Positions 11,666 through 32,182 of a stretch of 64,000 nt of DNA are shown piece after piece. Position 1 is the first letter of the stretch. Every line of letters begins with the position of its first letter. The notes below the pieces were generated by a model. It was not told where the DNA came from, did no database searches, and saw only the letters and a program-made list of their open reading frames with translations. Source of the DNA: an uncultured Solirubrobacterales bacterium (GTDB taxonomy: Bacteria; Actinomycetota; Thermoleophilia; Solirubrobacterales; Solirubrobacteraceae). The DNA is taken from positions 218,565 to 282,564 of the forward strand of contig CAWJPN010000001.1 in the NCBI GenBank assembly GCA_963844765.1, in the 5' to 3' direction. Both the position numbers and the translations under genes were made by a program.

Positions 11666-11807
11666 GGACTTAGTCTAGCAGATGGCCCCGAGCTCGATCC
11701 CAGCGATCGCGTGCATCTATGGCGAAGGTTGAACTCGTCGCTATAGCGAGTGGTTGGCCAACGCTGAATTCTCAGGGCCGCCGGAAGCGGACGGTAAACT
11801 TGGCTTT

Positions 11808-12727: not shown

Positions 12728-12945
12728 GCAGCGATCGTCAGATGCAGCGCCTCGCGTTCGCGCCGATCGTCGGTGTCTCCCGGCTCCGGCGAGAGCATGA
12801 GCCGCAGCGCGTCGATGACGTTGGCCCGTGCCTCATCCCGCGTTCGGCCCTGGCTGAAGACACCGGCGACCTCAGGGATCGACGCGACTACCCAGCCTTC
12901 CTCGCCGGGTTCGTAGATGATCGTCAGATCAAGCTGTTCGGGCAC
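12724..12945 (-). CDS. hicB: HicB family antitoxin (short form)
   Basis: IIYEPGEEGWVVASIPEVAGVFSQGRTRDEARANVIDAL; GTG start at 12945. Confidence 0.88.
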   Translation of the reverse strand: MPEQLDLTIIYEPGEEGWVVASIPEVAGVFSQGRTRDEARANVIDALRLMLSPEPGDTDDRREREALHLTIAA

Positions 12946-13034
12946 ACGGCAGACGATATCGCCCCATTGCGCGTATCGCCGGTCGAGTGGGTGGAGCCGA
13001 TCCCGCCGACCCCCGCGTTTGCAGGATTCCCAAA

Positions 13035-13079
13035 CGCGCCCGGCGCGATTCGAACGCGCGACCTCTCGCTCCGGAGGCG
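13035..13079 (-). repeat. attR of element A: displaced 3' half of tRNA-Arg(CCG)
   Basis: 13035-13076 identical (42 bp) to 26239-26280; 22-bp match to the intact tRNA at 42156-42177; no 5' half. Confidence 0.92.
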
Positions 13080-13187
13080 GACGAGGCGAACGGGCGGAAT
13101 CCCGCACCAGCACTGGGATTCCGCCCGTTTTGACACCCAGGATGGCACCCCCAAAACACGGGATTTGCGGGCGATTACCGGGGGTTC

Positions 13188-13209
13188 TGGCCAACCGTTG
13201 GCCAAAACC
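13188..13209. promoter_or_regulatory. Candidate integrase arm-type sites of element A (TGGCCA repeats)
   Basis: TGGCCAACCGTTGGCCAAAAC ~110 bp inside attR; similar paired repeats at 26135-26157 near the other att. Confidence 0.6.
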
Positions 13210-13250
13210 CGTGGCCCGGACGCGATCGAGCACGCGGCACGCCGCCTCGT

Positions 13251-13607
13251 TCAGTCGCCCCGGGCCCGCCCCTGCTGCTCGTCAACCTCGACGCGGCTCA
13301 GCACTTCTCCCTGCGGCCCGTAGATCGGTATGGAGCGGCCCGAGACGCCATTCGCGCGACCCTTGAGCCTTGGTCGCAGCCAGGACGCCACCCACGCTTT
13401 GACCGCCTCGGTGACTCGCTCGACCTCGGGGTCAGCGAGCTTCTGCAACAGGTAGATCGACAGTACTTCCGCAACGTCCGCGCCCCTTCGCTCGACTGGT
13501 GCTCGGTGCTCCGTGTCGAAGCCGGCTCCCTCCAAGGCATCGAACAGCTCTCTGAATGGCCTGACGGATTCGACGGCGACCATCGGGCGGTGCCCTGCCT
13601 CGTTCAC
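13251..13607 (-). CDS. Hypothetical cargo protein
   Basis: 118-aa ORF with plausible composition. Confidence 0.5.
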   Translation of the reverse strand: MNEAGHRPMVAVESVRPFRELFDALEGAGFDTEHRAPVERRGADVAEVLSIYLLQKLADPEVERVTEAVKAWVASWLRPRLKGRANGVSGRSIPIYGPQGEVLSRVEVDEQQGRARGD

Positions 13608-13697
13608 AGGGGTCGATCATACGCGCTGGCGCGCGCCGGGCGTTTACCGCGGGGCCAGCCAGCACGCGACGTCGGTTCCTGGCGCTGTACTGTGCGC

Positions 13698-13985
13698 CGC
13701 ATGGCAAGCAGCGAGTCGCTTATCGATCAGGCGCTGGCGGCAACAGCAGCAGCAGCACCGGCCACGCTCGACAAGCCCATCGAGGTCACTCCTCAACAGG
13801 CGCTCGTGCTGAGCGTCTACGAGGCGGTGGAGGCCAAGCGCCGGGGCTGGCCCGGCTCCGATGACGCGACCGTCGAGCGCTGTGTCCGAACGGCGAGGCG
13901 TGCGGGCGTAGCCGAGCACGAGATCGAGGCAGCTATTGCGGCCGGTGAGCAGACGCAGGACGAGCCCGACAACAGCGACGATTGA
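13698..13985 (+). CDS. Small hypothetical protein
   Basis: ATG GCA AGC start at about 13701; helical, acidic C-terminus. Confidence 0.4.
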   Translation, partial: RMASSESLIDQALAATAAAAPATLDKPIEVTPQQALVLSVYEAVEAKRRGWPGSDDATVERCVRTARRAGVAEHEIEAAIAAGEQTQDEPDNSDD

Positions 13986-14080
13986 GCCTTGGCGAGACGC
14001 CGTGCCAGCTATCGTGCTTCCTATTGCTCCCCGCCGTCCGGGCCTCACGGCTGCACTGGCGGGGGGAATCTCACCGGAAC

Positions 14081-14410
14081 TCAAGGGGCAGGATCGTCCT
14101 TGCGGACAGCGAAGACTGTGCCGTCATGCGATATGCGCTTAGGATCGGGGAGTCCGCTCCCGCCTAATGATCCGTCAGGTCGTAGATAGCGGTGTATGAG
14201 CGCGACCTTGACGATCCGGCCGCCCCGAGCCTCGATGTACTCGACGATTTGGCTTCGGGTGCCGGCAGCTTGGTGCGCACGCTCGCTGGGCTCCCGGTCG
14301 GTGACGATGATCTCAAGTAGCTCATTCCGAGCGATTCTGGGTAGAATCTCCTTGTTGAAGATCCGGCGCAGCTCGCCCGGGCTGACCCTCTGAACTGGAG
14401 GCATATTCAT
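14081..14410 (-). CDS. Hypothetical protein with HRYLRPDGSLGGSGLPDPK motif (possible RNase-type toxin)
   Basis: Distinctive conserved-looking motif; function is inference. Confidence 0.55.
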   Translation of the reverse strand: MNMPPVQRVSPGELRRIFNKEILPRIARNELLEIIVTDREPSERAHQAAGTRSQIVEYIEARGGRIVKVALIHRYLRPDGSLGGSGLPDPKRISHDGTVFAVRKDDPAP

Positions 14411-14741
14411 GCTTGATCTGGAGATCAGAGAGCGCATTGCGCGCTACACGCGAGGCGACCTCGGGGCACGCGAGCTCGAAGATTGGCTAGAGGGCGTCGT
14501 TTGGGGCCTCGATACTCAGCCGGAGAAAGACCTCGCGGCGACGGCACTCTCGCTCCTCGTTGAGCACGCCAACGGCGACTGGACCGATGCCGAGCTGCGC
14601 GGACGCTTGGGGGCATTGAGTCGTACCTACTGGTTTGACCACGCACCGAGAACCGTGATATCGGGTTCGATAGCGCGCGTCACCCGACTGAACCAGTCGT
14701 CGGGATCGGCTGGAATACGGCCCGCAACGGCATCCGTGTGA
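14409..14741 (+). CDS. Small acidic helical protein (immunity-protein-like)
   Basis: RERIARYTRGDLGARELEDWL pattern. Confidence 0.5.
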   Translation: MLDLEIRERIARYTRGDLGARELEDWLEGVVWGLDTQPEKDLAATALSLLVEHANGDWTDAELRGRLGALSRTYWFDHAPRTVISGSIARVTRLNQSSGSAGIRPATASV

Positions 14742-15111
14742 TGCGGGTGCCATCGAGGAGCACGTCGAACCAATAGAGCCCCTGCTGGTCCGCCTCGAAC
14801 ATGGCGTTGATGACTATGTTGCCGCCGCGCTCCTCGCCCTCGAAGAGCATGTGAGCCTGGAGGATCTGCGACTGCTCGCCCGAGGGCTTCTCAAGACGCA
14901 CCTCCACCGGCAGGTTGGCTCTTGCTTCCCCCGACTTCAGGCAGATAAGGAACATGATCGGCGTGCGGGGGTTCAATGGCTGGCCGTCCTCGCCGGCCAC
15001 AAAGAAGATCCGGTCGATGATCCTGATGGCGCTCATCGCGCCATCCTGCTCCTGGAGCACCTTCTCGCAGATCAAGGCCGCCTGGATGAATGGGCCGCTC
15101 TCGTTGGCCAT
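14680..15111 (-). CDS. DUF6941-like beta-sandwich protein
   Basis: ALICEKVLQEQDG..S.IRIID; GLYWFDVLLDG; RBS GGAGG upstream. Confidence 0.6.
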   Translation of the reverse strand: MANESGPFIQAALICEKVLQEQDGAMSAIRIIDRIFFVAGEDGQPLNPRTPIMFLICLKSGEARANLPVEVRLEKPSGEQSQILQAHMLFEGEERGGNIVINAMFEADQQGLYWFDVLLDGTRITRMPLRAVFQPIPTTGSVG

Positions 15112-15215
15112 CTCGTCGTCCTCCCTGTCGGAATCGCAGGCGATAGCCTACGCGACCGACACCAAAGACCGCCGCGAGGTTAGGCGAGTCCACCAGCGTG
15201 GCCCGCGCGGGCTCG

Positions 15216-16061
15216 CTACGGCGACGGCGGCGCGGCGCGCCGAGGTTCGGGCTCGCCCAGCTCGACGGCGCCCCCCTGCCTGAGCGCCGCCGGATCGATA
15301 CAGCGGACCGTCACGGGAGCCTGCGCAGGCCACGCGGCCTCCCTGGCGCTCGCGGCGGCCTCACTGGCGCTCGCGGCGGCCTCACTGGCGAGCTGCGCCG
15401 TCTTCTCGTGCTCCCTGGGGGTGCGCTCATGCGGCGGCCGGCTGAAGTCCGCGAATAGCTCGTCGCGCACCTGCTGGTAGGTGCCCTCCGCCTCGGCTAT
15501 CTGCGCGCGCAGCCACAACCGCGGCGCGGGGCTGAGTTCGGCCGCGCGCCGTATCTCGCCGTCCAGCGCCTCAAGCCCCACGGCAGCGTCATGTAGACGA
15601 TGCCCTCGCGGCTGGTCGAAACGTCCGGGGAGTACGGCGCCGAGAGACATCTCAGCGCCACGGAGTAGCCGCCGGTCCCAGTCCCCGACCTGGCGCGCAG
15701 TGATCCGGCCGGCGATGAGGCTCACGTTCGCCGCCGCCTCGGCTTGGGTGTGCCCGCAATGCTCGGCGAGGTGGCGGCCGAGCACCGCCGTGCCGATTCG
15801 GCGTAGTGCCCTCTCTCGCCGCGCGAGCCGCCGACGCTCGTCGCGCGACCGCGAGGCCGGACCGGCGTTGATCCCGGCGACGTGCAGCAGCACCGCCTCT
15901 GCTCTCGCCTCGGCGGAGCCGTCGGGCTGTGACAGGCGCGCGAGGTGCAGCAGGGCACCCCAGCCGACGCGCACAAGGTCGACCTGGCCACCCGCGGGCA
16001 GGATGATCGCGCGGGTGGTCTCCAGCCGCGCGCCCAAAACGGTAGTCAAAGGACTCGGCAA
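15216..16061 (-). CDS. Hypothetical protein with possible HTH segment
   Basis: 281-aa ORF divergent from the replication operon; TQAEAAANV segment. Confidence 0.45.
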   Translation of the reverse strand: MPSPLTTVLGARLETTRAIILPAGGQVDLVRVGWGALLHLARLSQPDGSAEARAEAVLLHVAGINAGPASRSRDERRRLARRERALRRIGTAVLGRHLAEHCGHTQAEAAANVSLIAGRITARQVGDWDRRLLRGAEMSLGAVLPGRFDQPRGHRLHDAAVGLEALDGEIRRAAELSPAPRLWLRAQIAEAEGTYQQVRDELFADFSRPPHERTPREHEKTAQLASEAAASASEAAASAREAAWPAQAPVTVRCIDPAALRQGGAVELGEPEPRRAAPPSP

Positions 16062-16071
16062 CCTGGGACAG

Positions 16072-16410
16072 ATGAGTCAAGTTGATGCACCCCCACAGCT
16101 TTGCGGGGCGCCCGGTCGGAGCCCCAACGAAGCGCTGAGCTTCGCCGTTTTGCGCCTGCGGGCAAAGGGCATCTTCGCGGTGGACATCGCTCGCGCCGCC
16201 GGCATACATCCGAGCCGTTTGTCGCGCCTGCAGAACGGCCACCAGACGCCCACAGTCGACGAGGCGCGTCGGCTCGCGGACCTTTTAGAGCAGCCATCGG
16301 AGAGCCTGTTCCCCAGGCTCGCGCCTGTTAACGCGAGCGACGGCGCGGGGACCACCGCACCGTCGCTCAAAACTTCGCCGGGCGGCCAGGCCCAACATGC
16401 ACCAGCCTAG
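16072..16410 (+). CDS. XRE/Cro-like HTH protein, first gene of the A replication operon
   Basis: IARAAGIHPSRLSRLQNG..PT helix-turn-helix. Confidence 0.75.
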   Translation: MSQVDAPPQLCGAPGRSPNEALSFAVLRLRAKGIFAVDIARAAGIHPSRLSRLQNGHQTPTVDEARRLADLLEQPSESLFPRLAPVNASDGAGTTAPSLKTSPGGQAQHAPA

Positions 16411-16414
16411 CGCC
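16327..16414 (+). ncRNA. Candidate structured RNA (motif 1, copy A)
   Basis: Near-identical to 27961-28047; hairpin GAGCGACGG...CCGTCGCTC. Confidence 0.5.
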
Positions 16415-16801
16415 CCGTCCCGACGCGATCGGTCCAGCCAGCGGCCGGATCCGTTCGCACGGCCGCTCGATGCGCTGCTCCAGCGGCTCCGCGAGGCCGG
16501 GTTGCCCTATTACTGGTCGCAGACCGATCTCAAGATATGGAAAGCCGTTTGCCCAAGCTGCCGCGCGCCCGAATGGGGATTGAGCGTCCGCGAGAGCTAC
16601 GTCGGCGGGCAGGTCACGGTCCGGTGCGCCGGCGGGTGTTCGGACGGCGAGATCCGTACAGCTCTCGACGCGGCAGCACGCGAGGTCGATCCTTACGCGC
16701 TGGAGCTGGCCGTGCAGGCGCGTGATATCGCCGAGGCCGCACTCGCGCTCGGCGCCGCGCATGCCAAGGGCCAATCCCCCGAGTTAAGGGTGGCGGCGTG
16801 A
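16397..16801 (+). CDS. Stand-alone primase zinc-binding-domain-like protein
   Basis: VCPSC...RCAGGC; homologous to 28293-28670; GTGA overlap with the helicase. Confidence 0.6.
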   Translation: MHQPSAPSRRDRSSQRPDPFARPLDALLQRLREAGLPYYWSQTDLKIWKAVCPSCRAPEWGLSVRESYVGGQVTVRCAGGCSDGEIRTALDAAAREVDPYALELAVQARDIAEAALALGAAHAKGQSPELRVAA

Positions 16802-17975
16802 GCGATGCCCCGTTCCTCGAAAGCGCCGCCGACCTACTGGGCGAGCCCGACCCCGGCCCCACACCATTCCTCGTGGAGGGCCTGATCGTGGACCATTCGA
16901 TCGCAGCGGAGCAGGGGCCACCGAAGGTCGGGAAGACCTGGATCGCTCTAGAGACCGCCACGTCCGTCGTCACCGGCCTGCCAGCGTTCGGCCAATTCGC
17001 CACGCTCAAGGGTCCCGCCATCATCATCCTGGAGGAGTCCGGCCGCGCGGCCCTGCACCGGCGCCTCGACGCGCTTGCACGCGGCCGTGCGATCAAGCCC
17101 GACCAGCTCCGGGACCTGCACTTCGCCGCGAACCGCCGGGTACGCCTAGACGACCCGAAGTGGCGCGAGCGCATCCTCGCCGACGCCGGCAAGATCAAGC
17201 CACGGCTCGTCATCTTCGACCCGCTCGTCAGGCTGAAAGGGGCTGGCACGTCAGAGAACGACCAGGGCGAGATGGCGCACGTCCTGGACTTCCTACGCGA
17301 CCTCCGCGACGCCCTGGAGGCAGCCGTGCTGTTCGTCCACCACACCGGCCACGGCGGCACACACCTACGCGGCACATCCGACCTGGAGGGCTACTGGGAG
17401 TCCAAGCTCTCGCTCGCCGCCAACCCAGACGGCACCACCGAAGTCACCGCCGAACACCGCGAGGCCGAGGCGACCGAGCCGTTCCAGTTCCGCCAAGCAT
17501 GGGACCAACACGGCTCCGTGCGACTCGCAATCGTCGAAGACGGCCGCACACAACAACTCCGCGAAGCGATCACCGCACACGTCCGCGAGCACCCCGGAGA
17601 GCACGCCGACGGCATCGCCAAAGCCGTCCACAAACGCGCCGCAGACGTCCGCGCACAGCTCTCCGAACTCGAGAACGCCGGGACGCTCTACCGGCAAGCG
17701 TCCGAGTACCCGGACAAGGCCGGACGGCCAAAGCGCCGCGCCACATGGTTCCCCACACCACAAGCCAAAGAACAGCCATCAGTCGGCGTCCCAAACCACC
17801 GGACGCCCAACGAACAGCCGACCTCCGAAAGTGGCTCAGCGTCCCAGCGTCCCGCCTTTAACAAAGGCGGACGCGGGACGCCCACTGATCGGACACTCCG
17901 GACACGCTCCCAGAAGGCTGGTCACTCAACGACCTCGAAGCAGTCGCAGTCGAGCACCGAGAGGCCATCCAATGA
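16798..17975 (+). CDS. AAA_25/RepA-type replicative helicase, probable frameshift near the 3' end
   Basis: GPPKVGKT Walker A, LVIFDPL Walker B, FVHHTG, LRGTSDL; an alternative frame ends EGWSLNDLEAVAVEHREAIQ* with an ATGA overlap onto the next gene. Confidence 0.78.
17839..17881. promoter_or_regulatory. Candidate replication origin of A (long imperfect palindrome)
   Basis: GCGTCCC-A-GCGTCCCGCCTTT-AAC-AAAGGCGG-ACGC-GGGACGC at the 3' end of the helicase gene. Confidence 0.5.
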
Positions 17976-18436
17976 CGCCCCCGGTCGCCCTCGCGCAGCA
18001 CGCCCAGGCAGGCGATTCTCGGCGGTCGCTCGGCCTGACGCCGCGCGAGCTGCTGCTCGTTGAGGCCACGGCGCAGCGCGTGGTCGAGCTGCTGCGCGAG
18101 CGCGACGACGTGCCGCCCACTGGGCTCGTGACTGCCGGCGAGCTTGCAGCGGCTTTTGGCTGCTCACGGACGTGGTGCTACGAACACGCCGCCGAGCTGG
18201 GCGCCGTTCGCCTCGGCGATGGGCCGAAGGCGCGGCTCAGGTTCGACCTGGAGGCGGCGCGTGAGGCCCTTGCGGGTGGGGGTGTTCGCCCCGGCAGCGA
18301 GAGGTCTGACACCCGGATCGCTAGTGCTGGTGCGGGTTCTCGCCCGTCTGCTCAGCGTGGAGCCCGTCGCGTTGGCCACTATCGGCCAAAACCGGGGGCG
18401 ATTCTGCGCCCGCGCAGCACCGGGGTTCGACCGTGA
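17972..18436 (+). CDS. Excisionase-like winged-HTH protein (A)
   Basis: LVTAGELAAAFGCSRTWCYEHAAELGAVRLGDGPKARLRFD; homologous to 30198-30641. Confidence 0.7.
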   Translation: MTPPVALAQHAQAGDSRRSLGLTPRELLLVEATAQRVVELLRERDDVPPTGLVTAGELAAAFGCSRTWCYEHAAELGAVRLGDGPKARLRFDLEAAREALAGGGVRPGSERSDTRIASAGAGSRPSAQRGARRVGHYRPKPGAILRPRSTGVRP

Positions 18437-18618
18437 CCGCCGAGAGCCCGACCGTGCTCATCGTGCCGCGCGCCTTGACGCTCGGCCGCATGTTGCGGGA
18501 GCCGCCGCCGCCGAGCATCGCCCGTGAGCTGTCGAGGATCGCCGCCGACAGGCTGGGTCGCAAGCTGGGCGCGCTGGAAGCCGCCGACCGAGGCGATCTA
18601 CGGAGGCGAGCAGCGTGA
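18433..18618 (+). CDS. Small hypothetical protein
   Basis: GTGA-coupled within the operon. Confidence 0.5.
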   Translation: MTAESPTVLIVPRALTLGRMLREPPPPSIARELSRIAADRLGRKLGALEAADRGDLRRRAA

Positions 18619-18790
18619 GCGCCGTGTTACCCAGCGCGACGCCCACGGATGCCGTCAGCGGCGCCGAGAACGGCTCACGGCCGGTGTTTCGCGGTGGTCC
18701 GTGCCCTGATCCGCGGCACTGCCGCTACTTCCTCCGCCTGCCGTCAGGTCCGTGGTCTTGCGAGAGCTGCCACCCGAGGGACGGCGAGCG

Positions 18791-18991
18791 GTGAGCGCGC
18801 CGACACGCAAGACGGCCTTCGCCTGCGAATGCTGCGGGCTCACGGGCGCCAGCCTCGTCCCTGTCGAGCACAGGAAGACGAGGGAGCGCGACCGCATCGC
18901 CTTGTGCCGAGGCTGTGTCCGCAACCCGAACCGCACGGTCTGGCTCCGGTGGCGGCTGGTTGAGCGCGAGCGCACGGGGGCCGGGCGATGA
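18791..18991 (+). CDS. Small Zn-finger protein (CxCC..LCxxC)
   Basis: Homologous to 30634-30831. Confidence 0.6.
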   Translation: MSAPTRKTAFACECCGLTGASLVPVEHRKTRERDRIALCRGCVRNPNRTVWLRWRLVERERTGAGR

Positions 18992-19278
18992 GTGGCTTCG
19001 GGCAGCACGTCGAGCAGCGTCTCGCGGCTGGCGCCGCGGCCTATGGCGATGGTGGCTATCGCCGGCCGCTCGGTGAGCTGATCGCCGAGCAGCTTGAGGA
19101 GGCAGCGGATCTTGCGGGGTGGGGCCGGATCGCCGTCGCCGTCCTCGCCGACCGTGACGACCTGGAGCCCTGTGAGCGCGAAGAGGTCACGGCGGCGTTG
19201 CACTGTGCCGAGAACCATGCACGGCAGGCGTGGGCTCGTCTCGATGGTGCGCTTGGGATCGTCCGGGGTGCGTCGTGA
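18988..19278 (+). CDS. Hypothetical phage-type protein
   Basis: Coupled starts and stops; EQLEEAADLAGW motif. Confidence 0.55.
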   Translation: MSGFGQHVEQRLAAGAAAYGDGGYRRPLGELIAEQLEEAADLAGWGRIAVAVLADRDDLEPCEREEVTAALHCAENHARQAWARLDGALGIVRGAS

Positions 19279-19604
19279 GCGCCGTTGAGCGACGCAAGGG
19301 TGCAGTCGCCGAGCGTGAGGTCGTCGCCTTGATCCGTGAGGCGGGTTGGCCGGATGCGAGGCGGACGCATGATGGTCGTGCTCAGGTGGGCCGCGGCGAC
19401 GTCGCAGGAGGCCCAGCAGGCGTCCACTGGGAGATCAAGCGGGTCGAGCGGCTGAGTGTGCCGGGGGCGCTCGCGCAGGTCCGCGCTGACGCCGATCCGG
19501 GAGACTTGCCGGTCCTTGTGCATCGCCCGTCGCGGGCCGACTGGATGGCGACAGTGCCGTTGGCTGACCTGCTGGCTCTGCTGGCGTTGAGGGAGCGGGC
19601 ATGA
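19275..19604 (+). CDS. PD-(D/E)xK Holliday-junction resolvase (Hjc-like)
   Basis: KGAVAEREV, GD, WEIK, PVLVHR..W. Confidence 0.75.
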   Translation: MSAVERRKGAVAEREVVALIREAGWPDARRTHDGRAQVGRGDVAGGPAGVHWEIKRVERLSVPGALAQVRADADPGDLPVLVHRPSRADWMATVPLADLLALLALRERA

Positions 19605-19873
19605 GCACGCCAGCAGGCACCCGTAGGGCACCTGGACGCCGGCCACTGCCCTTGCCGAGGTGGAAGGTGTCGATCGCCGCGCACGACATCCCACCACGCT
19701 GGCGCATTCCTGCGCAGACGCGGGCGGTGGGTGCGGCCTCGGCGGAGGCTGCGTGCATGGTGGCGGTGAGGTCCGCGCACAGGGAGGCCGGCGCCGCGCC
19801 GCTGCTCAGCCTGGTCGCCCTGTCGTTGGATCATGTGCGGGTTGAGCGTGTGGGGAGGCGTGATGGCTGCTAA
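19601..19873 (+). CDS. Conserved element protein (homolog of 30828-31094)
   Basis: Shared PLPxWxVxIxxHDIPPRWRIPA and PLLSxxALSLDH. Confidence 0.75.
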   Translation: MSTPAGTRRAPGRRPLPLPRWKVSIAAHDIPPRWRIPAQTRAVGAASAEAACMVAVRSAHREAGAAPLLSLVALSLDHVRVERVGRRDGC

Positions 19874-20477
19874 GCGGACTCGGGCTGAGCGGCGGGAGAG
19901 CGTTGTGCGGATGCTGACCGAGGACCCCAAGCGGCCGGACCGTGCGATTGCGCGTGCGACTTCCGCGTCGCACACGCTGGTCGGCCAGGTGCGTAGGGAG
20001 CTTGTATCTGCCGGAAAGATTGCCCCACGGTCCTGCCAGCCTGAGACGGCAACCCAGCAGGGGCATGGCAACTTGACGCGGCAGACGGCCGGTGAGCCGT
20101 CGCCCGCTGTCACGCACGGCGCATATTCTGCCAAGGCGTTGGCTTCTCGCGTGGAGGAGTTGACGGACGAGCTGCGGGGCGTGGTGCCGGGCGCCAAGGC
20201 GGCCGATGACACGGCGATCCGGCTGCTGGCGTTGTTGTTGGCACAGATCGAGGCGGTGAACGCTTGGATCGCGGAGCGTGGGCTGTTCAAGCGGGCGGGT
20301 CGGGGTGAGCCTCAGCCGATCTTGGCGATGCAGACGCGGTGGATCGGTGCGGCGGCGAAGCTCTGCGACCAGCTGGGGCTGACGCCGACTGCTCGCGCTC
20401 GGCTGGGTGTGGTTCGTGATGGTGAGGATGCGTACGCGCACTATTTGGAGATCACTCAAGGAAAGGACCTGAAGTGA
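19863..20477 (+). CDS. terS: Terminase small subunit-like protein with N-terminal HTH
   Basis: HGAYS and LCDQLGLTPTARARLG (P27-type TerS signature); lies upstream of terL. Confidence 0.6.
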   Translation: MAAKRTRAERRESVVRMLTEDPKRPDRAIARATSASHTLVGQVRRELVSAGKIAPRSCQPETATQQGHGNLTRQTAGEPSPAVTHGAYSAKALASRVEELTDELRGVVPGAKAADDTAIRLLALLLAQIEAVNAWIAERGLFKRAGRGEPQPILAMQTRWIGAAAKLCDQLGLTPTARARLGVVRDGEDAYAHYLEITQGKDLK

Positions 20478-20827
20478 CTGCTGGGAATCCTGCCGGTCCG
20501 CGTACGGTGACGGGTGGTGGTCACGGAGGCTGTGATTTCTGCGTCTCGACGTGCGCGGCGGTCGTCGCCTTCCCGGCCCGGCCGGTCGCGAGGGAGGTCA
20601 CGACGCGCCCCCGCTGGTGGCTGGCGTGTCGCGAGTGCGCTCGGCTGGTTGCATCGACGGACCGTGGGAGGCTGGCGTGGCGTGCGCTGGACGGCCGGGT
20701 GCGGGCGTGTGGTGGTGGCTTGGGTCTGACGGCGGACGCCGCTCACCTGGCGCACATCCGCGGGACGCACGATCTCTTCTGGTCGGCACGCGACGGTGAG
20801 CCTGAGCTGTTGGGGGTGGGGGTGTGA
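20474..20827 (+). CDS. Hypothetical Cys-motif protein (CDFC..CREC)
   Basis: Coupled between terS and terL. Confidence 0.55.
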   Translation: MTAGNPAGPRTVTGGGHGGCDFCVSTCAAVVAFPARPVAREVTTRPRWWLACRECARLVASTDRGRLAWRALDGRVRACGGGLGLTADAAHLAHIRGTHDLFWSARDGEPELLGVGV

Positions 20828-22345
20828 GTGTCGCTCCAAGCATTGGGTTGTGCGAGGCGTTGGATTCTCCGGCCCTCCTCGGCCGGGAGTTGGAGTTGTC
20901 GCCGCGTCAGCGGGAGCCGTGTGAGGCGATCGATGCGGGCGCGACGCTCGTTGTGCTTGAGTGGGGTCGTCGCTCGTTCAAGACGGGCGTGCAGAGTGCG
21001 ATCGGCTTGTGGCATTGCTTGCCTCGGGAAGAGTTCGGCGAGTATCTGCGGCCCGGTGAGGTCCGGCGGGTGCTTGCTTTGGCGACGAACCTCAAGCAGG
21101 CGCGGGGCGTGATCGCTGCGGCTGAGGTTGTGATCGCTACGTCGAAGGTGCTCGGGCCGATGGTCGAGAGCCGGACGGATTTGGAGATCAGGTTCCGGCA
21201 CGGTGTTGTGTTCGCAGCGATGCCGGCGAACGCGCCGGGTGACCGTGGGAGGGGCGCTAGCTGCGTTTTGCTGGATGAGTTTGCGCACCACTTCGATGGT
21301 GACTCGGACGGGCCGAAGTCGGCTGAGACTTTGCTCGCGGCGGTCGTGCCGAGCGTGTCTCAGTTCGAGTCGCTTGGGAGCCTTGTTGTGGCGTCCACGC
21401 CTTCGGGCGACTCGAATAAGTTTGCTGAACTGTGTGATGACATTGTTGAGAATCCGTCGCCGACCGCGGCGTACTTTTTCGGCAAGACGTGGGAGATCAA
21501 CCCGAAAATCCGGGAGGATGGTCTCGCGGAGGAGCGGCGTCTGCTTGGCCCCGAGCTGTTTTCGCAGGAGTATGAATGCAACCGGCTTAGCGGCGCGGGG
21601 TCGTTCCTGAACGCGGACGCGATTGAGGGGTGCGTGTCGGATGGTGGTGATGTGGGGTACACGGCTGGGCTGGAATTCTCTCTCGGGATAGATCCCGCGA
21701 TGAGTTCGGATACGTTCGGGTGTGTGGTGCTGGGGTGTTGAGCGGAGCGACCCGTCGCGGATGGTGGTCTGCCAGGTTCATGGGTGGCAGGGTGAAAAGT
21801 CGGATACTTTTGAGCAGGCGCGGTTGCGGGAGGATGAGCTGCTTGCGCGTGTAGTGGCGGTCTGCCGGGAGTATCGCATTACGGAGGTCGCGACGGATGT
21901 TTTCAAGGCTAGGGAGATCCGTAGCCGTCTCTCGGAGCACGGGGTTACTGTGGTGGATGTGCCGTTCTCTGGTGATGGTCGCCGGCAGGTATTCACGGGG
22001 TTGCGTTTGGTGATCGACGAGCAGCGGATTGACTTGCCGCGTGAACCTGAATTGTTGCGTGAGCTTCGCGCTTTGCGGGTGAAGTACACGAGCGCGGGGC
22101 AGGTCGTTGAGATACCCCGGCTGTCGGGGGGTAACCATTGTGACCGGACGGTCGCTCTCGCGCTTGCTATCGCGGCGCGTGAGGGTGGTGAGTCGTGGCC
22201 GGCGTTTGGGTCGTATACGCCGCCTCCTCGGGGGACTGTTGCGGGTGACGTTGCGGCGGAGCGTGGTGAATTGTTCGACGCGGGCGGCGAGGACGATGGT
22301 GGGGTGTTCGGCGGGTATTACGATAGTCCGATCGACAATTGGTGA
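20824..22345 (+). CDS. terL: Terminase large subunit (A), split by one extra G at about 21732-21735
   Basis: GRRSFKT, LLDEFAH, ASTPSG, GIDP, HCD; the two frames join as CVVLG|VERSDPSR and align colinearly with intact terL of B. Confidence 0.8.
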
Positions 22346-22412
22346 CGACCGATGAGTGGGTCATACTGTGTATAGGCGAGGGCGTGTGCTCTCACAATCG
22401 AAAGGAACGGAA

Positions 22413-23306
22413 ATGCTAGCGGTAATTGATCAGGCGGAGCGGCTGCGGCAGGCTTCCCCCGCGTGGATGGAGTCCCGAATGAGGGAGTGCGGTTTCACGT
22501 CGGGCATGTCTGCTGCGGAGGGCGACGAGGCCGGCCAGCGGCTCGTCGAGATGGCTGGGAGGGAATACCGGATGCGCGAGGCGGCGGCGCAGACCATCGA
22601 TATGCGCTCGCGGGCGAAGCGCTCGGCGGGGTACCGTTTGCCGACGCCGCCGGCGGATGATTCGATGATGGCGTTCCTCGCGGAGGAGGGAGTTCCGATG
22701 CGGACCCGCGAGGCGACGTATGGTGGCGAAAACGGCACGCCTAAGGTGGCCTATGAGGATCAGGATACCTACCGGGATATAACGGATTTATTCAGCGTCC
22801 TGGATCAGGAATTGGAAAACGGGACGCCGAATCTGGAGAACCGTCAGGTCGAAGAAATTGCGACGGCGATGCAGGAAGGCCGTCCGTTGTCGGATGTGCA
22901 GATCGGTGTGCTGCGTGGTCTGCTCGACAAGTATTCAGCCGAGCTTGCGGCTTTCCGGGCGAGCGGCCGTGAAGGCCAGGACTATGGGAGCGTCCCTGAC
23001 CCGGCGACCGCACGGCTCGCGGAGTCCGCGGCGGGTGGCCTGATCGACTTGTTCGCGGAGGAGCCGCCGCCGGCACCGGGGCCAGACGGCTTGTATGACC
23101 TCAGCGTGGATGGTGTGCCGACTGTCCCGCGTGATGTTGGCGAGGCCGAGGCTTCGCGGCTACGCGAGACCGCGTATGAGCCAGAGGAGGGCCTACTCGA
23201 CCTCCGCGAGTCGGGTGTTCCGATGGTGGGCTCGGTGCCCCGGAAGCCCACAGCAGAGATCCTTGCCGAAGCGAATGAACTCGCCCGGCTGGAGGAGACG
23301 CTGTGA
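22413..23306 (+). CDS. Acidic late protein rich in LxE[S/A/T] motifs (scaffold-like candidate)
   Basis: Strong RBS AAAGGAA; directly after terL; function is inference. Confidence 0.65.
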   Translation: MLAVIDQAERLRQASPAWMESRMRECGFTSGMSAAEGDEAGQRLVEMAGREYRMREAAAQTIDMRSRAKRSAGYRLPTPPADDSMMAFLAEEGVPMRTREATYGGENGTPKVAYEDQDTYRDITDLFSVLDQELENGTPNLENRQVEEIATAMQEGRPLSDVQIGVLRGLLDKYSAELAAFRASGREGQDYGSVPDPATARLAESAAGGLIDLFAEEPPPAPGPDGLYDLSVDGVPTVPRDVGEAEASRLRETAYEPEEGLLDLRESGVPMVGSVPRKPTAEILAEANELARLEETL

Positions 23307-23479
23307 GCGCCGTCGAGACGATCGAGGCTGCGGACCCGGCGCTACAGGGACTCACACGGATCACCGAGTTGCCGGGCGCCGCGCTGCCGGTCGAAGAGTG
23401 CAGGTGGACGCCCGACCTGGCACTTCGCTACGGCGCAGGCGAGGCGCCGGCGAGAAGGCTAACCCAAACAGGTAACTGA
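23303..23479 (+). CDS. Small hypothetical protein (58 aa, below the ORF-track cutoff)
   Basis: GTGA overlap with the upstream stop. Confidence 0.45.
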   Translation: MSAVETIEAADPALQGLTRITELPGAALPVEECRWTPDLALRYGAGEAPARRLTQTGN

Positions 23480-24043
23480 AAGGAATGTCATGGCGATTGA
23501 AGAGTTGGCTCAGGCCGCGAGCCTGAACCCGAGTCCCGCAACGAGCAGTCAGACGGTGGTGGCGCAGCAGGCCCGCGTTGTGTACGGCTGGAGCTACTGG
23601 GGGTGAGTCTTGTTCTTTCGCGCTGTGCCTGCAAGCGGTGCGTGTGCCAGCCGGCGCCTTCCCTTCATCGGGCGCCGTGGCGGGCCAGGGGCTTTCGTTC
23701 CTTTCACCCCTGGCCCGCCGCCTGGCGCGATTGGTTTCGTGGCGGGTCCTCTTCTCCCTGTCGCGGGATGGTGAGCGCCCGGCGTGGTTCGTGATGGTCT
23801 CGCGCCGGGCAGCTCCCAAAGCAAGGGATATGTCGCATCGTCCGACACTTCGGGGCCGTGTCAGCGCTCCGCTTCGACGGCGGCTGTCAGCTCCGTGATC
23901 GTCAGGTCGAGTGCGGCTGCGACCGCGCAGATCGTGCTCCAGGCGGGGTCGGACTGTCCGAGCTACCGGCAATCGTGCTCGTGATCTGCCTGGTCTTCCC
24001 TGCTCGCGGGCGTGGTGTGCGCCGTGATCCTTGGCTGGCAGGT

Positions 24044-24280
24044 CTAGGCGGGGGTGTCCTCGGTGGCCTGCGCGAGCTCGGAGACGGATACGCCGAGCCC
24101 GGCCGCGATGCGCGCGACGGTCGTCCACGCCGGGTTGGATGTGCCGCGCTCGGCGCGGACGTACGCCGTGACGCTCAACCCGGAGCGGTGGATCACGTCC
24201 TCCTGCGTCATGCCGCGCTCTGCCCGCAGGCGACGGATCGCGGCGGCGAGCGCGGGGTCGGGCGGTTCCCTTGTTGGCAT
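24044..24280 (-). CDS. XRE-family repressor (A)
   Basis: IRRLRAERGMTQEDV..SGLS..ERG..NP.W.TV; DNA-level homolog of 36271-36501. Confidence 0.88.
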   Translation of the reverse strand: MPTREPPDPALAAAIRRLRAERGMTQEDVIHRSGLSVTAYVRAERGTSNPAWTTVARIAAGLGVSVSELAQATEDTPA

Positions 24281-24295
24281 GAGAGGAACATGCCG

Positions 24296-24335
24296 TGAAC
24301 TGGTGCGCTAGTCCAGGTGTCAGCGCACCAGTTCA
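24296..24335. promoter_or_regulatory. Perfect 14-bp inverted repeat, probable operator in the divergent promoter region
   Basis: TGAACTGGTGCGCT-N12-AGCGCACCAGTTCA. Confidence 0.65.
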
Positions 24336-24362
24336 AGTGAACCTGTACCGTTTTGCGCGCCT

Positions 24363-24447
24363 CGGCGCTCATCCCCACAGGACGCCGCCCTGGCACGTGG
24401 GCCGGCGTCGGGTGCGCTCGATATCACGCCCGGCGTCGGCTCCTACA
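24363..24447 (+). ncRNA. Candidate structured leader RNA (motif 2, copy A)
   Basis: High identity to 36586-36674; two hairpins with wobble-compatible changes. Confidence 0.55.
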
Positions 24448-24460
24448 CGCGGGGCACACG

Positions 24461-24631
24461 ATGACACGCCAGCGCTCGTTGACCGCGCAACTATTCCGGG
24501 CGGCTCGGCTGTCGGCGACCGCGAGGGCCGTCGCGTCGGGGAATCCGAAGCGGGTAGCTCGCCGCGCGAAGAACATCGCCGTGGGCCGTGCGCTGGGCCG
24601 TGCCGGCGTATGGCGGAGGTTGTGGAAGTGA
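24461..24631 (+). CDS. Small basic protein
   Basis: MTRQRSLTAQLFRAARL..NIAVGRALGRAG. Confidence 0.6.
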   Translation: MTRQRSLTAQLFRAARLSATARAVASGNPKRVARRAKNIAVGRALGRAGVWRRLWK

Positions 24632-24729
24632 CAACGGGCATCGCGTAGGGTACCGTGTCCCGTAGTTGGTGTGGTACCCTTTCTGGCATGGCTCCGGGTA
24701 GGAGCTTCGGCTAAGCGAAAGGACCAACG

Positions 24730-24969
24730 ATGGGCACGACGACAGAGCGGGCCGAGAAGGTGCGCGAGAACCGGCTCAGGGCGATGGCCGAGCGGCAGGG
24801 GCTCGCACTCCGCAAGTCGCGCACCCGCGACCCGCGCGCCCTGGACTACGACCGCTGGATGATCCTCGACCCGACCGTGAAGGGTGGCGTAGTCGGGAAG
24901 GGGCGAACCGGCAAGCCGAGCATGACCCTCGGTGAAGTCGAAGACAACCTGATGGGAGATGATGCGTGA
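24730..24969 (+). CDS. Small phage-type protein upstream of the integrase
   Basis: ENRLRAMAERQGL.L.KSRTRDP; RBS AAGGA. Confidence 0.65.
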   Translation: MGTTTERAEKVRENRLRAMAERQGLALRKSRTRDPRALDYDRWMILDPTVKGGVVGKGRTGKPSMTLGEVEDNLMGDDA

Positions 24970-26203
24970 TGGCACGTCCAACGAGGGGCAGCGTCACGAC
25001 GCACCAGGCCCGCGACGGGGTGACGTACCGCTCGCTGCGGTTTACGGCCTACGGCCAGCGGCGTCGTGTCCCGCTCGGCCCGGTGAGCGACGAAGAGGCG
25101 CAGATCGCGCTGCGCCACGCACTCGCGGATGTCGAGCGTGGCGTGTGGCAGCCGCCCGCCGCGATCGAGCCGCCAGCCGAGGCGACGACCACACCGACGT
25201 TCCATGAGTTCGCCGAGGAATGGTGGACGCTCAACGCGGCGCAGCTCGCCGAGAACACCCAGGCGGACTACCGTTGGCGGCTTGAGAGCCACCTCATCCC
25301 GTACTTCGGGGAACGGCGGCTCGACGCGATCACGTTTGACACGGTGGAGCGGTACATCGCCGCGAAGCTCGCGGAAGACGGCCCGTTGTCGGCGCGGTCG
25401 ATCAACATGACGGTCACGCTGCTCGGCGCGGTCCTGGAGCGTGCGGTGGAGCGTGAGCTGATCGCCCGGAACCCCGCGAAGGGGAAGGGTCGCAGGGTCC
25501 GCGAACGCGCCCCCTCGCGGTGTATCTGGATGCTGCGGGGCAGGTCACGGCGCTGCTGGACGCGGCAGGCGATCTGGACCGCAGCGCATCCCGTGGGCGC
25601 CGGCACGTCGAGCGCCGCGCGATGCTCGCGACGCTGACGTTCGCGGGGTTGCGGATCGGCGAGCTGTGCGCGCTGCGCTGGCGCGACGTGGACCTCGCCG
25701 GCGGATGGCTGCACACGGGCTCCAAGACAGACGCCGGTAGACGCAAGGTGAAGATCCGCGGCGCGCTGCGGGATGAGCTGCTGGCGCTCCGTGGACGCCA
25801 CCAGGACGCGCCACAGACCGCGTACGTGTTCGCCACACGCACCGGGGGACAGATGAGCCCGGACAACTTCCGCAACCGGGTGCTGAGTGCTGCCGTGAGG
25901 CGTGCGGGCGAGCGCCTGGAGGCCGAGGGCCTGCCGCCGCTGCCGGACAAGCTGACGCCGCACTCGCTGCGGCGGACGTTCTGCTCGCTGCTGTACGCGC
26001 TCGGTGAGACGCCGCCCGTCGTCATGAACGAAATGGGGCACACCGATCCGGCGCTCGCGCTGCGGGTCTATGCCCAGGCGATGCGCCGCGGCGAGGATGA
26101 GCAGGCGCAGCTCCGGGAGCTGGTCGAGGGCGGGGTTTTGGCCAATAGTGGCCAACGGGGTGAAAACCGGCCAGTGAGCCCGGCGCCCCGCGAGGTCGCC
26201 TGA
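24969..26203 (+). CDS. int: Tyrosine integrase of element A, frameshifted near 25515-25520
   Basis: GLRIGEL, HSLRRT, MGH, LRVY catalytic set in the second frame; N-terminal domains in the first frame; aligns with int of B. Confidence 0.9.
26135..26157. promoter_or_regulatory. Candidate arm-type site pair of element A near attL
   Basis: GTTTTGGCCAATAGTGGCCAACG, ~80 bp from att. Confidence 0.6.
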
Positions 26204-26206
26204 ACG

Positions 26207-26234
26207 AAAAAACCCCGCGTTTGCGGGGCTTTTT
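26207..26234. terminator. Bidirectional intrinsic terminator
   Basis: AAAAAA-CCCCGCGTTTGCGGGG-CTTTTT between the int stop and the tRNA fragment. Confidence 0.8.
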
Positions 26235-26238
26235 GGAG

Positions 26239-26280
26239 CGCGCCCGGCGCGATTCGAACGCGCGACCTCTCGCTCCGGAG
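26239..26280 (-). repeat. A/B junction att: second copy of the tRNA-Arg 3' half
   Basis: Identical to 13035-13076; identity to the intact tRNA begins at the anticodon loop CTCCGGA. Confidence 0.92.
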
Positions 26281-26365
26281 AACGCGGCCAGTCCCGATCG
26301 GCGGGCATCCAACCCGATGTTTGCTGGGGTTCTGTCGAGCCGGTCCTAGCGATCCGAGGCGATTG

Positions 26366-26399
26366 GGCAGCGAAAAGGCAGCGGAACACGGCTGCTGCC
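26366..26399. promoter_or_regulatory. Candidate arm-type sites of element B (GGCAGCGAAA)
   Basis: Two direct copies (26366, 26377) plus an inverted GCTGCC; matching repeats at 41996-42054. Confidence 0.65.
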
Positions 26400-26445
26400 T
26401 TTTCACTCACGGGTCGTTGCGGGGGGCGCCGGGGGCCTCGGACCT

Positions 26446-26650
26446 CTAGGGCTGCTGCTGCTGCTCGCGCGCGGCCTTCAGCGCGGCCTGCGCCAGCCCG
26501 GCTTCCTTGCCCGCCGCCTCGATCCCGGACACGACCTCATCGAGCGCGAACCGCGCGCCCTCCGGGTCGTCGTGGTCCAGCGACTCGACGGCTGCCGCGA
26601 CTTCTTCCTTCACCTTGTTCAGCCGGCGCTCGATATCGGTGATCGCGCCG
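26446..26650 (-). CDS. Small coiled-coil hypothetical protein
   Basis: C-terminal part of ORF 26446-26970 is helical; start uncertain. Confidence 0.45.
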
Positions 26651-26956
26651 CGGACATGCTGGTCGTGCTCGGGTGAGAAGGCCACGGTCTGGACTCTAGC
26701 GCGAAGCCAACGCCGGCGCGAGGTGTCCGCGCGCGCCCGTAGGCTGTCTCTCGGCAGGAAGTTCTCCGGGCGGGCGGCGCTCCAGTGGGTGGGGTGCCGC
26801 CCGTTTTCTCGGGCGAGGGTCTGAAGTATCGGCACCCACGGTAGGGTCGCGGGCGATGGCACCAGGCGCTTCAAGGCAACTATCGGCGTCGGCGTCCCGG
26901 CAGGGCGATGAGGGCTACCGTTGCGCCGCTCGGACCAAAGCTCTACGCTTACGGCC

Positions 26957-27163
26957 ATGAGCACTCTCAACGTGTCGCGCCGCGCGCGCGTCAGGGCGTC
27001 CCGTCGTGCGGGCTTCTCAAGCGGTGTGGCGTCCGTCTTCCGGCTGCTGGGCCGTGGCCGGCCAGCCCCCCCGCTCGTTCGTCGCGGCCCGGGGTCCCTG
27101 CTCGGGGACGCTCACGCACTCCGGCGCGACGGCGAACGCCTATTCCGTGACGACCCAGCCTAG
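26957..27163 (+). CDS. Small hypothetical protein preceding the DUF2335 gene
   Basis: ATG at 26957; overlaps the next start. Confidence 0.5.
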   Translation: MSTLNVSRRARVRASRRAGFSSGVASVFRLLGRGRPAPPLVRRGPGSLLGDAHALRRDGERLFRDDPA

Positions 27164-27692
27164 CGGCCCGCCAGCGGGTGGATCGCCGGAAGGCCGCCGC
27201 GAGCAGGGGGCCGGCGCTCAAGAACTCGACAGGTCCGAGGATGTCATCGACGGCGAGCCGGTCGTTGACGACACCGCGCGTGACCGGCGCCTAGCGTGGT
27301 CTGCGAGCTTCAGCGGTCCCCTTCCGCCCCCTGCGTCCCTCGCGGAGTACGACCAGACCGTGCCGGGCCTTGCGCGCGAGATCGTGGACCAGTGGAAGGC
27401 CGAGACGGAGCATCGCCACCGCACGATCGACGGGCTGCGCGAAATCGACCGCGACTCGATGCACGCCTACTACGGGAGCGAGCGTCGCGGCCAATGGCTG
27501 GCTCTCGTCGTCTTCCTCGCCGTGATCGCCGTGGCCGTCCTGGCGATCGTCTTGCATCGCGAAGCGGTCGGCGTAGCCGCGATCGTCACCGGGGGCGCCT
27601 CGGCGATATGGGCTATGCGCCGGCGTAGCGACAGCCCCGGCGCCACGGCCCCCCCGACTGACCTCAGCGACGGCGACACCGCGCACGCATAG
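27147..27692 (+). CDS. DUF2335-family membrane protein
   Basis: FSGPLPPP..L.EY...PG.A..I...E.EHRH, then RGQ and two TM helices. Confidence 0.8.
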   Translation: MTTQPSGPPAGGSPEGRREQGAGAQELDRSEDVIDGEPVVDDTARDRRLAWSASFSGPLPPPASLAEYDQTVPGLAREIVDQWKAETEHRHRTIDGLREIDRDSMHAYYGSERRGQWLALVVFLAVIAVAVLAIVLHREAVGVAAIVTGGASAIWAMRRRSDSPGATAPPTDLSDGDTAHA

Positions 27693-27762
27693 ATCCCCCG
27701 CCTCGTTAACGGCCTGACGGCGCCGCCAGCCATCGCAGCCGCTCCAAGGTCTAACGTGATGC

Positions 27763-28044: not shown

Positions 28045-28047
28045 CGC
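27961..28047 (+). ncRNA. Candidate structured RNA (motif 1, copy B)
   Basis: Near-identical to 16327-16414. Confidence 0.5.
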
Positions 28048-28104
28048 ACCCCAAGGACGCGACGCGCTGGACGCAGATGCCTGCCCGCACGGGGGGCGCT
28101 GCTT

Positions 28105-30171: not shown

Positions 30172-30197
30172 GCCGCCACAAGCACGAGGGCGACCTG

Positions 30198-32115: not shown

Positions 32116-32182
32116 CTCGCTCAGCCGTTCGCACGGCCCGTCTTGCGGCCTGCCTGCCTGCTCGCAGGTGGAGGGCCGTGGC

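Follow-up and report, generated by a model that had tools for sequence, protein, structure and literature searches.

A 24-bp sequence inside the tail of a xis-like gene, at positions 18370-18393 of the window (the whole 64-kb stretch of DNA that was analysed), is a near-identical copy of a box pair located next to an attachment site of the integrative element that carries this gene. We propose that it is a selectively maintained third copy of the arm-type site of this element, overprinted on xis-like tail codons and serving as a putative operator of the integrase (Int), a reading whose chances we put at about even. The neighboring element, which competes for the same tRNA gene, carries boxes of a different sequence on its arms and has a copy of its own boxes, rather than of these, at the corresponding place. 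Other relatives repeat this with boxes of their own, and the sequence is therefore probably bound by a recombination protein for a regulatory purpose.

Two tandem elements and their arm boxes

Two elements are integrated in tandem at one tRNA gene, element A at 13077-26280 and element B at 26281-42174. The ends of A that the original prediction had assigned proved to be right, since identical 42-nt copies of the 3' part of tRNA-Arg(CCG) are found at both of them; the 3' part of the tRNA gene itself (42133-42174) is 86% identical to these copies. The gene order in A is minus-strand cargo, AAA_25, xis-like, RusA-like resolvase, small terminase, large-terminase fragment, Xre and int. The features of element A and of its target are the following.

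13035-13076, plus strand: attR of A, displaced 42-nt copy of the 3' part of tRNA-Arg(CCG)
13170-13176, plus strand: GGCGATT, core-proximal flank of the P-arm boxes
13184-13208, plus strand: P-arm box pair of A, near-palindromic, ~110 bp from the core, with a box spacing of 11 bp
16798-18063, plus strand: gene of a replication protein (AAA_25), immediately preceding the xis-like gene
17972-18436, plus strand: xis-like gene of A, from ATG to TGA
18296-18306, plus strand: inverted att-core copy AGCGAGAGGTC, 64 nt upstream of the boxes, which encodes S-E-R-S and uses the rare AGG codon
18314-18347, plus strand: inverted copy of the P-arm hairpin region 13090-13123, 27/34 bases with an exact 14-mer
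18370-18393, plus strand: internal box pair of A, TGGCCA and CGGCCA, 10 bp apart
24044-24307, minus strand: Xre-type HTH gene, converging on the xis-like operon
24969-26203, plus strand: Int-A, tyrosine integrase gene reading toward the tRNA
26134-26157, plus strand: P'-arm box pair of A, ~105 bp from the core, within codons of the C-terminal tail of Int-A
26239-26280, plus strand: attL of A and at the same time attR of B, second tRNA copy, identical to 13035-13076
42132-42206, minus strand: intact tRNA-Arg(CCG) gene, the integration target and the sole tRNA gene of the window

The named close relatives of the element proteins come from Solirubrobacterales MAGs. A scan of genome contigs with the AAA_25 protein gave one match, a distant myxobacterial one, and no close copy of the element was found in the genomes of 60 relatives. 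Int-A is read in two frames, with a net -1 frameshift near 25522 when compared to an intact relative, and this frameshift counts against our main reading.

The reported 22/23 match between CGTTGGCCACTATCGGCCAAAAC (18370-18392) and the reverse complement of 26135-26157 was reproduced, with 0.00 such matches expected from shuffled sequences, and it can be extended by one nucleotide to 23/24 (18370-18393 against the reverse complement of 26134-26157). The edges of the match are abrupt: the 40-nt flanks of the two copies are unrelated, and 18370-18393 thus stands by itself as a discrete element and does not mark the border of a duplication. There are only two copies in the window when up to 3 mismatches are allowed, and only two in the whole 3.74-Mb assembly when up to 4 are allowed. 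The related pair expected next to attR was found at 13184-13208 as GTTCTGGCCAAC-C-GTTGGCCAAAAC. When the window was searched for TGGCCA-N3-6-YGGCCA, three loci were obtained (13188-13204, 18373-18388 and 26139-26154) against 0.09 expected, so that paired loci of this type are present in the window only at the two att arms of element A and at the internal site. The boxes of the latter fall in codons R-V-G-H-Y-R-P-K of the xis-like tail. The predicted distances of ~45 nt to the stop codon of the xis-like gene and of ~8 kb to the nearest matching att copy are close to the measured ones, which are 41 nt from the end of the site and 7.7 kb to the P' copy; the P-arm pair is 5.2 kb away. The internal site therefore has the sequence of an arm site without having the position of one.

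No promoter or terminator consensus was found beside the internal site of A, no sigma-70-like promoter was detected within 15900-19300 by a scan that is weak for Actinomycetota, and 12900-31000 contained no match to Rfam families. An RNA hairpin was considered and rejected: both the A and the B sites can be folded, but the matching P' copies of B are direct repeats and no U-tract follows.

Elements A and B are syntenic and differ in their att-arm repeats. The features of element B are the following.

26366-26404, plus strand: P-arm boxes of B, GGCAGCGAAAAGGCAGC-N-GCTGCCTTTTC, two direct boxes and one inverted box
30198-30641, plus strand: xis-like gene of B, whose product is 38-40% identical to that of A depending on the alignment
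30589-30621, plus strand: internal site of B, GAAAAGGCAGC-N11-GCTGCCTATTC
38593-39825, minus strand: Int-B, intact
41996-42054, plus strand: P'-arm boxes of B, in which GGCAGCGAAA is repeated in tandem four to five times with a period of 11 bp

The internal site of B occupies codons homologous to those that hold the site of A, and its end is 17 nt from the stop codon of the xis-like gene (30639-30641). Positions 30589-30611 match the P' array of the same element at 22/23, including an exact 19-mer, and the internal site shares its inverted N11 layout with the P arm of B. The N-terminal beta3-alpha domains of Int-B and Int-A are 42% identical. The segment of the window at 38499-40157 is inverted relative to the related element L017.

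Internal boxes in related elements and constraint on the coding sequence

Metagenomic relatives were collected by similarity to the xis-like protein. The absence of internal copies from homologous elements had been named as a refutation of the original prediction, which survives this check, as such copies are present in B, L015, L016, L017 and L103. Each of them resembles the att-arm boxes of its own element, while the boxes differ between elements. L015 has A-type boxes and a replication module composed of Prim-Pol and D5_N; its internal site CGTTGGCCACTATCGGCCACAAC matches its own P' pair at 22/23, and the AAAAC found in element A of the window (WA) is ACAAC in L015 in the internal and P' copies alike, a concerted change. 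L016 and L017 are B-type and follow the pattern of element B. L103 is a minimal 6.4-kb element (rep, xis-like, int) located in tRNA-Val(TAC); both of its arms carry ACGGGCACC boxes, of which 11 nt are copied exactly in the xis-like tail. Repeats that are present on both arms, are distinct from the core and lie less than ~200 bp from the crossover were found in A, B, L015, L016, L017, L099 and L103.

The association was evaluated by a rank test, in which the last 100 nt of the xis-like gene were scored without gaps against both arms and the best score was compared to those of all other 100-nt windows of the locus; it replaced sharing of the longest exact word between the tail and the remainder of the locus, which was too noisy at 69% G+C. 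The p-value was about 0.003, the floor of the test, for WA and L015 (A-type) and likewise for WB and L017 (B-type), 0.013 for L016 (B-type) and 0.021 for L103 (ACGGGCACC box). For the C-type elements L018 and L099 (in tRNA-Gly and tRNA-Ala, respectively; TTGGCAGA) it was about 0.3, with a 10-nt match only, and no signal was obtained by this test for L102, for the E-type elements L045, L051 and L054, or for L089. Fisher's combined p-value is 1e-5 over 11 elements, negatives included; L102 and L103, which were tested separately, are outside of this set. Judged by these comparisons, the internal copy is not universal: it is solid for three classes of box and doubtful for one more, and we count the apparently missing or weak sites of C-type, E-type, L089 and L102 against the main reading.

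Codon alignments point to constraint at the level of the DNA. For the A-type trio (the window, L014 and L015, whose proteins are 61-72% identical), no other 8-codon window of the gene is as well conserved as GGC CAC TAT CGG CCA xAA CCG GGG, where 23/24 nucleotides are identical. Third positions are identical in 10/10 of the site-spanning codons of this trio compared to 60/166 over the gene, and the two changes that occur within the ten site codons are both non-synonymous. Within the B-type trio, the 9-nt spacer is variable, unlike the two half-sites that it separates, which are conserved, and the B box is completed by the rare A/T-ending codons TTG, CCT and ATT. A peptide motif, LLPIR or ILRPR, is also present in the tail; relatives without the site (E-type) retain this motif but encode it differently. 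In B- and D-types LLPIR overlaps the right half-site, and since the motif is retained with other codons where the site is absent, a part of the conservation of this half-site must be ascribed to the protein level; moreover, CTGCTGCC is the commonest coding of LLP at high G+C. The A-type boxes are located upstream of the motif, and at the A-type site and at the left half-sites the encoded peptides are unrelated between types (GHYRPKP, AGKGSSA, TGTGVE).

Candidate binders, proposed function and rival explanations

Int is our favored putative binder of the boxes, with slightly better than even chances, because it has a lambda-like N-terminal arm-binding domain and because box pairs are present on both arms. 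The two TGGCCA-type boxes, one helical turn apart, would be bound by this domain. The arm boxes lie ~100-130 bp from the core and are type-specific between elements that have one common core. In the AF2 model of Int-B, strands E7-12, E19-26 and E29-37 and helix H44-60 are predicted with pLDDT of about 90-96 and are followed by a low-confidence linker (62-80) and by core-binding and catalytic domains; full-length lambda Int (1z1b) is among the top fold matches to Int-B, with 385 columns aligned. A Pfam search with Int residues 1-80 gave no match. The assignment of the boxes to the integrase, as made in the original prediction, is upheld in part: the boxes are paired on both arms, are type-specific and are accompanied by an Int beta3-alpha domain, but the xis-like protein co-varies with them equally, as both proteins follow box type wherever both were compared (types A, B and C).

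The xis-like protein is a less favored putative binder than Int, and we regard this role as rather unlikely for it. The product of the xis-like gene of A is modeled as an N-terminal helix, a winged HTH of the MerR/Xis type and a disordered basic tail, with pLDDT >90 for residues 24-102. Its top fold match is Pukovnik Xis 4j2n (probability 0.99, rmsd of 1.8 A over 48-50 residues, TM on target of 0.66-0.71), and BldC, terminase DNA-binding domains and RdfS are further matches. It was classified by fold comparison alone: searches with Pfam, PHROGs and a PDB sequence profile yielded no classification, and the PF12728 HMM remained below the threshold (E of 0.02-0.09). The xis-like gene and the end of the rep gene overlap by 4 nt in every case, while the distance from the xis-like gene to int varies: it is directly upstream of int in L103, about 1 kb upstream in L098/L099 and 6.5 kb away in A. 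L104, the only chimera encountered, retains the xis-like HTH core beside the rep gene, and its homology to the C-type element L098 stops about 40 nt before the boxes; beyond that point there is a different Int with its own canonical HTH_17 Xis, and a truncated xis-like copy coexists with the latter. The L104 sequence may thus tie the boxes to the Int module, if weakly. Xre was rejected as a box binder: the gene and leader at 24044-24307 have 85-89% DNA identity to the copy in element B though the boxes of the two elements are unrelated, and no box is present in regulatory regions.

GGCGATT is unchanged in the P arms of A-, B- and C-type elements and may be a candidate site for a recombination directionality factor (RDF) or a host factor. 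To judge from lambda and L5, an RDF or a host factor would be expected just core-proximal to the arm boxes, the position at which GGCGATT is found.

As the int gene runs toward the tRNA, there can be no overlap between its promoter and att. An additional arm-type operator that ends the replication/xis-like operon would make it possible for Int occupancy to act on this operon; candidate modes are a roadblock, insulation and the formation of a loop with the att arms. In A and B, the next gene begins at the stop codon of the xis-like gene, so a protein bound at the site, at the end of the operon, would stand in the path of RNA polymerase toward RusA/terminase. Transcription leaving the operon would enter the RusA/terminase block in A and B and the convergent Xre and int region in small relatives: in small C-type relatives the xis-like and Xre genes converge at the place of the site, and in L103 the site is about 230 bp upstream of int. 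Small relatives lacking the packaging module keep the site at the same place (L103 clearly, L018 and L099 weakly), which weakens the link to packaging genes that had been proposed. In A and B, the xis-like operon is separated from int by the minus-strand Xre gene and a divergent region, and a roadblock at 18.37 kb would therefore probably exert no direct control on int. The roadblock or looping function is speculative, and it is likewise a speculation that, given the inverted core-like sequence nearby, the same Int protomers could form an att-like complex that does not recombine.

Each of the five tRNA-Arg elements has the inverted core word, always 64-70 nt upstream of its boxes, and no other non-att sequence matches the respective attP junction as well, the margins over background being small. 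In L018 the sequence, inspected by eye, does not mimic the tRNA-Gly core of this element, and this failure of the core-like match to co-vary is counted against the main reading. Together with the copy of the P-arm hairpin region, the core-like word leaves some room, at low probability, for a decoy-att or a recombination reading. A derivation of the whole tail from an inverted attP fragment was rejected, for the pieces are not collinear in A and their orientation differs in B. It is conceivable, but improbable in our estimate, that the end of the xis-like gene is a decoy att made of an inverted core half-site and arm boxes, on which Int, perhaps with the RDF, would build a non-recombining intasome. 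Such a complex may set the replication/excision operon apart from the downstream modules, in the manner of a terminator or insulator that depends on protein, or the locus may be a rare inversion or module-exchange site. The RDF in question would be the very protein whose tail the codons of the site encode.

Four other explanations were weighed against an Int operator. The least improbable of them, though still rather unlikely, is that the xis-like winged-HTH protein binds the boxes as an RDF and does so at two places, att and a distant regulatory site, which in this case would be the end of its own gene; P2 Cox, 186 Apl, P4 Vis and RdfS act in this manner at att and at a distant site. The Xis-like fold shared with Pukovnik Xis 4j2n, BldC and RdfS agrees with this, as do the type specificity of the protein and its co-variation with the boxes, the habit of such proteins to polymerise on direct repeats of 10-11 bp, comparable to the B-type P' array, and the binding of RdfS to attP and to its own distant promoter (PMC11963761). 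RDF sites, however, are normally confined to one arm, between the core and the Int arm site, whereas the boxes are present on both attP arms, and if they are given to the RDF, no repeat family common to both arms is left for Int. A half-site spacing of 10-11 bp in A compared to 22 bp in B would be awkward should the long N-terminal helix form a fixed dimer, L104 keeps the HTH core while the boxes go with the Int module, and the invariant GGCGATT beside the P-arm boxes is a better-placed RDF candidate. A recombinable pseudo-att, which could undergo inversion or deletion with attL or attR or exchange modules between tandem elements, seems very unlikely to us. The presence of AGCGAGAGGTC(GC), inverted, 64-70 nt from the boxes in five tRNA-Arg elements, using a rare AGG codon and matching the attP junction better than any other non-att sequence, is what such a site would predict, module boundaries coincide with this place (as in L104), and blocks are inverted between relatives (38499-40157 compared to L017). 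Yet only one core half-site is well matched, and by eye the overlap that would result contains one base too many. In addition, relatives integrated at other tRNAs share S-E-R as a peptide motif, the tRNA-Gly core is not mimicked in L018, the end points of the inversion in B are devoid of boxes, and no rearranged allele was observed.

It is similarly hard to credit that there is no function at the DNA level and that protein constraint on the tail, combined with chance or with gene conversion from the att arms, has produced the matches. That the tail has a genuine peptide motif (LLPIR/ILRPR), written with different codons in E-type relatives, that CTGCTGCC is what high G+C would most often give for LLP, and that the C-type and L102 matches are within chance in the rank test can all be explained in this way. 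What cannot easily be accommodated is the position of the A-type boxes upstream of the motif with an arm match of 22-23/24 and a peptide that differs completely between types, the use of rare A/T-ending codons (TTG, CCT, ATT) exactly where the B box needs them, the invariance of third positions at the site next to a variable spacer in B-type, and the like behavior of three unrelated box sequences. Finally, the location of the site 300 bp downstream of rep and 1.4 kb upstream of terS might suggest iterons of a replication initiator or a pac site of the small terminase. We consider this extremely unlikely: A-type boxes are found with AAA_25 (the window and L014) as well as with Prim-Pol and D5_N (L015), the D5_N type also occurs with B-type boxes, small relatives without terminase keep the site (L103 clearly, L099 weakly), and copies on either side of an att core make no sense for an ori or a pac site.

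Relation to known recombination and regulatory sites

If Int does bind the internal site, tRNA-convergent int genes, which are barred from autoregulation at att, could still sense Int levels, and the site would offer an uncomplicated natural example of bases that serve as a DNA operator while encoding a protein tail. The orthogonal pairs of Int and arm site, represented by TGGCCA, GAAAAGGCAGC, TTGGCAGA and ACGGGCACC, would then be available for studying the evolution of arm specificity. Should the decoy-att complex be what forms there, the integrase would be a transcription regulator acting through a dedicated intragenic site, with its specificity co-evolving at three loci. The pattern can also provide an annotation rule for the widespread small integrative elements of Solirubrobacterales.

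The boxes of element A are similar to the arm-type sites of lambda (P/P'), L5 and Cluster K in that they are ~10 bp long, are distinct from the core, and are paired one helical turn apart on both sides of it. In mycobacteriophage L5 and Cluster K, arm-type sites are pairs of 11-bp repeats (PMC3203893), and for actinophages, box pairs on both arms that differ between related Ints with a common core have been described (PMC3203893). Type-specific boxes at a common core and the modeled N-terminal beta3-alpha domain of Int are likewise shared with heterobivalent Int systems. The internal copy, unlike the lambda or L5 arm sites, is intragenic and 5-8 kb from att and cannot join the bent intasome of attP, attL or attR.

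Putative reuse of the sites of a recombination protein for transcription of the recombination module brings the element close to KplE1, P4 and ICEMlSymR7A, where att arms that overlap Pint serve to autoregulate int (IntS/TorI of KplE1, P4 Int and IntS of ICEMlSymR7A; PMC2951348, PMC11963761). There, int is transcribed away from att and it is the att arms themselves that serve as sites, whereas in element A int converges on the tRNA, i.e., has the shape of the OC arrangement, and the extra site is a separate, intragenic one at the 3' end of an RDF-like gene. In the OC arrangement of Panis et al., Pint cannot overlap att, and two convergent int genes tested in E. coli were not autoregulated (PMC2951348). 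With P2 Cox, 186 Apl, P4 Vis and RdfS, one small winged-HTH protein acts at att and at a remote regulatory locus; the boxes of those proteins are found on one att arm and at promoters, while the boxes of A are on both arms with a remote copy at a gene end.

Integration-dependent immunity of mycobacteriophages BPs and Brujita relies on a functional attP core placed in a regulatory gene, so that integration truncates the protein. As in these phages, an att-related sequence is overprinted in element A on the 3' end of a regulatory gene near the recombination module. Unlike in these phages, the functional att is at the tRNA (13035-13076 and 26239-26280), and the gene holds only arm-type boxes and a core-like word of 11-13 nt. 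We know of reuse of recombination sites for gene control only at att arms that overlap the int promoter, or with RDFs at promoters. What element A and its relatives would add is an additional, separate arm-type motif that is maintained within a coding sequence, kilobases away from att, and that tracks the arm sites as their specificity diverges between elements competing for one tRNA. The theme, sites of recombination proteins reused for control, is thus a known one, and a separate intragenic copy appears to be a new variation on it; that this copy is an arm-type site is a plausible, putative reading.

Composition of the element family

Relatives' loci fetched via the xis-like protein (L014-L017 and L098-L104) were surveyed together with elements A and B of the window. 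Element sizes lie between about 6 and 16 kb, and the targets are tRNA-Arg, tRNA-Gly, tRNA-Ala or tRNA-Val. A replication gene, which may be of the AAA_25, D5_N or DUF3987 type, usually directly precedes the excisionase-like (xis-like) gene, and in most loci the called coordinates of the two overlap by 4 nt. RusA, TerS and TerL are found only in the larger elements, where no gene was recognised as coding for a capsid. The elements may be satellite-like.

When the P arms of A, B, L015, L014, L016, L017 and L099 were compared, the same word, GGCGATT, was found directly core-proximal of the type-specific paired boxes (the candidate Int arm sites) in all A-, B- and C-type arms. In the window its positions are:

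13170-13176, GGCGATT of the element A P arm
26358-26364, GGCGATT of the element B P arm

The word stays constant across three types that differ in their boxes, in Int and in the xis-like protein. It is a candidate site for a recombination directionality factor or a host factor.

Integrase genes and the boxes within their tails

In several family members the P' boxes lie within codons of the integrase C-terminal tail, past the catalytic Tyr, so that the integrase and xis-like genes both end in overprinted boxes:

window 26134-26157, element A
L015 17748-17771
L099 12483-12507
L102 ~13575-13600
L103 ~11775-11800

The integrase gene of element A is itself split between frames:

window 24969-26203, int-A, in two reading frames, shift region 25440-25570

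Since alignment with the intact L015 integrase gene (79% nucleotide identity) places a net -1 shift near 25522, int-A would be either a pseudogene or the product of an assembly error. A 184-aa integrase catalytic-domain fragment (PF00589) is encoded mid-element B at 34041-34595 and is 84% identical to int-A across 55 nt.

Rearranged segments

In element B, the Xre(HTH_3)-int block (38499-40157) has the opposite orientation to its counterparts in the two closest relatives, L017 (18257-19901, 90% identity) and L016 (17361-18786, 79% identity). The inversion ends carry no boxes. Between the block and the P' boxes lie additional minus-strand genes, one of them an ASCH gene, which take up about 1.8 kb.

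In the xis-like tail of element A, between the core-like word (an inverted att-core copy) and the boxes, 18314-18347 repeats, in inverted orientation, the terminator-like hairpin region near attR (13090-13123), with 27 of 34 bases matching, including an exact 14-mer, CCCGCACCAGCACT; the copy is not collinear with attP. The similarity is lower, ~61-65% by eye, in L014 and L015.

L104 6001-6720 is a natural chimera, in which the xis-like gene retains its helix and wHTH and has a short, new tail. Downstream of it come a canonical HTH_17 excisionase and an integrase that looks unrelated and has GGGCAAC boxes close to its att. The breakpoint lies ~40 nt upstream of the expected C-type box position.

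The xis-like tail peptide

The disordered tail of the xis-like proteins (P0007-P0125) contains a conserved basic run followed by LLP[IV][RK]G or ILRPR. The C-type tail reads RRLPNRLPEPG, a peptide repeat mirroring the pair of boxes in the DNA, CGTCTGCC. In lambda, the Xis tail contacts Int, and by analogy the xis-like tail might do the same.
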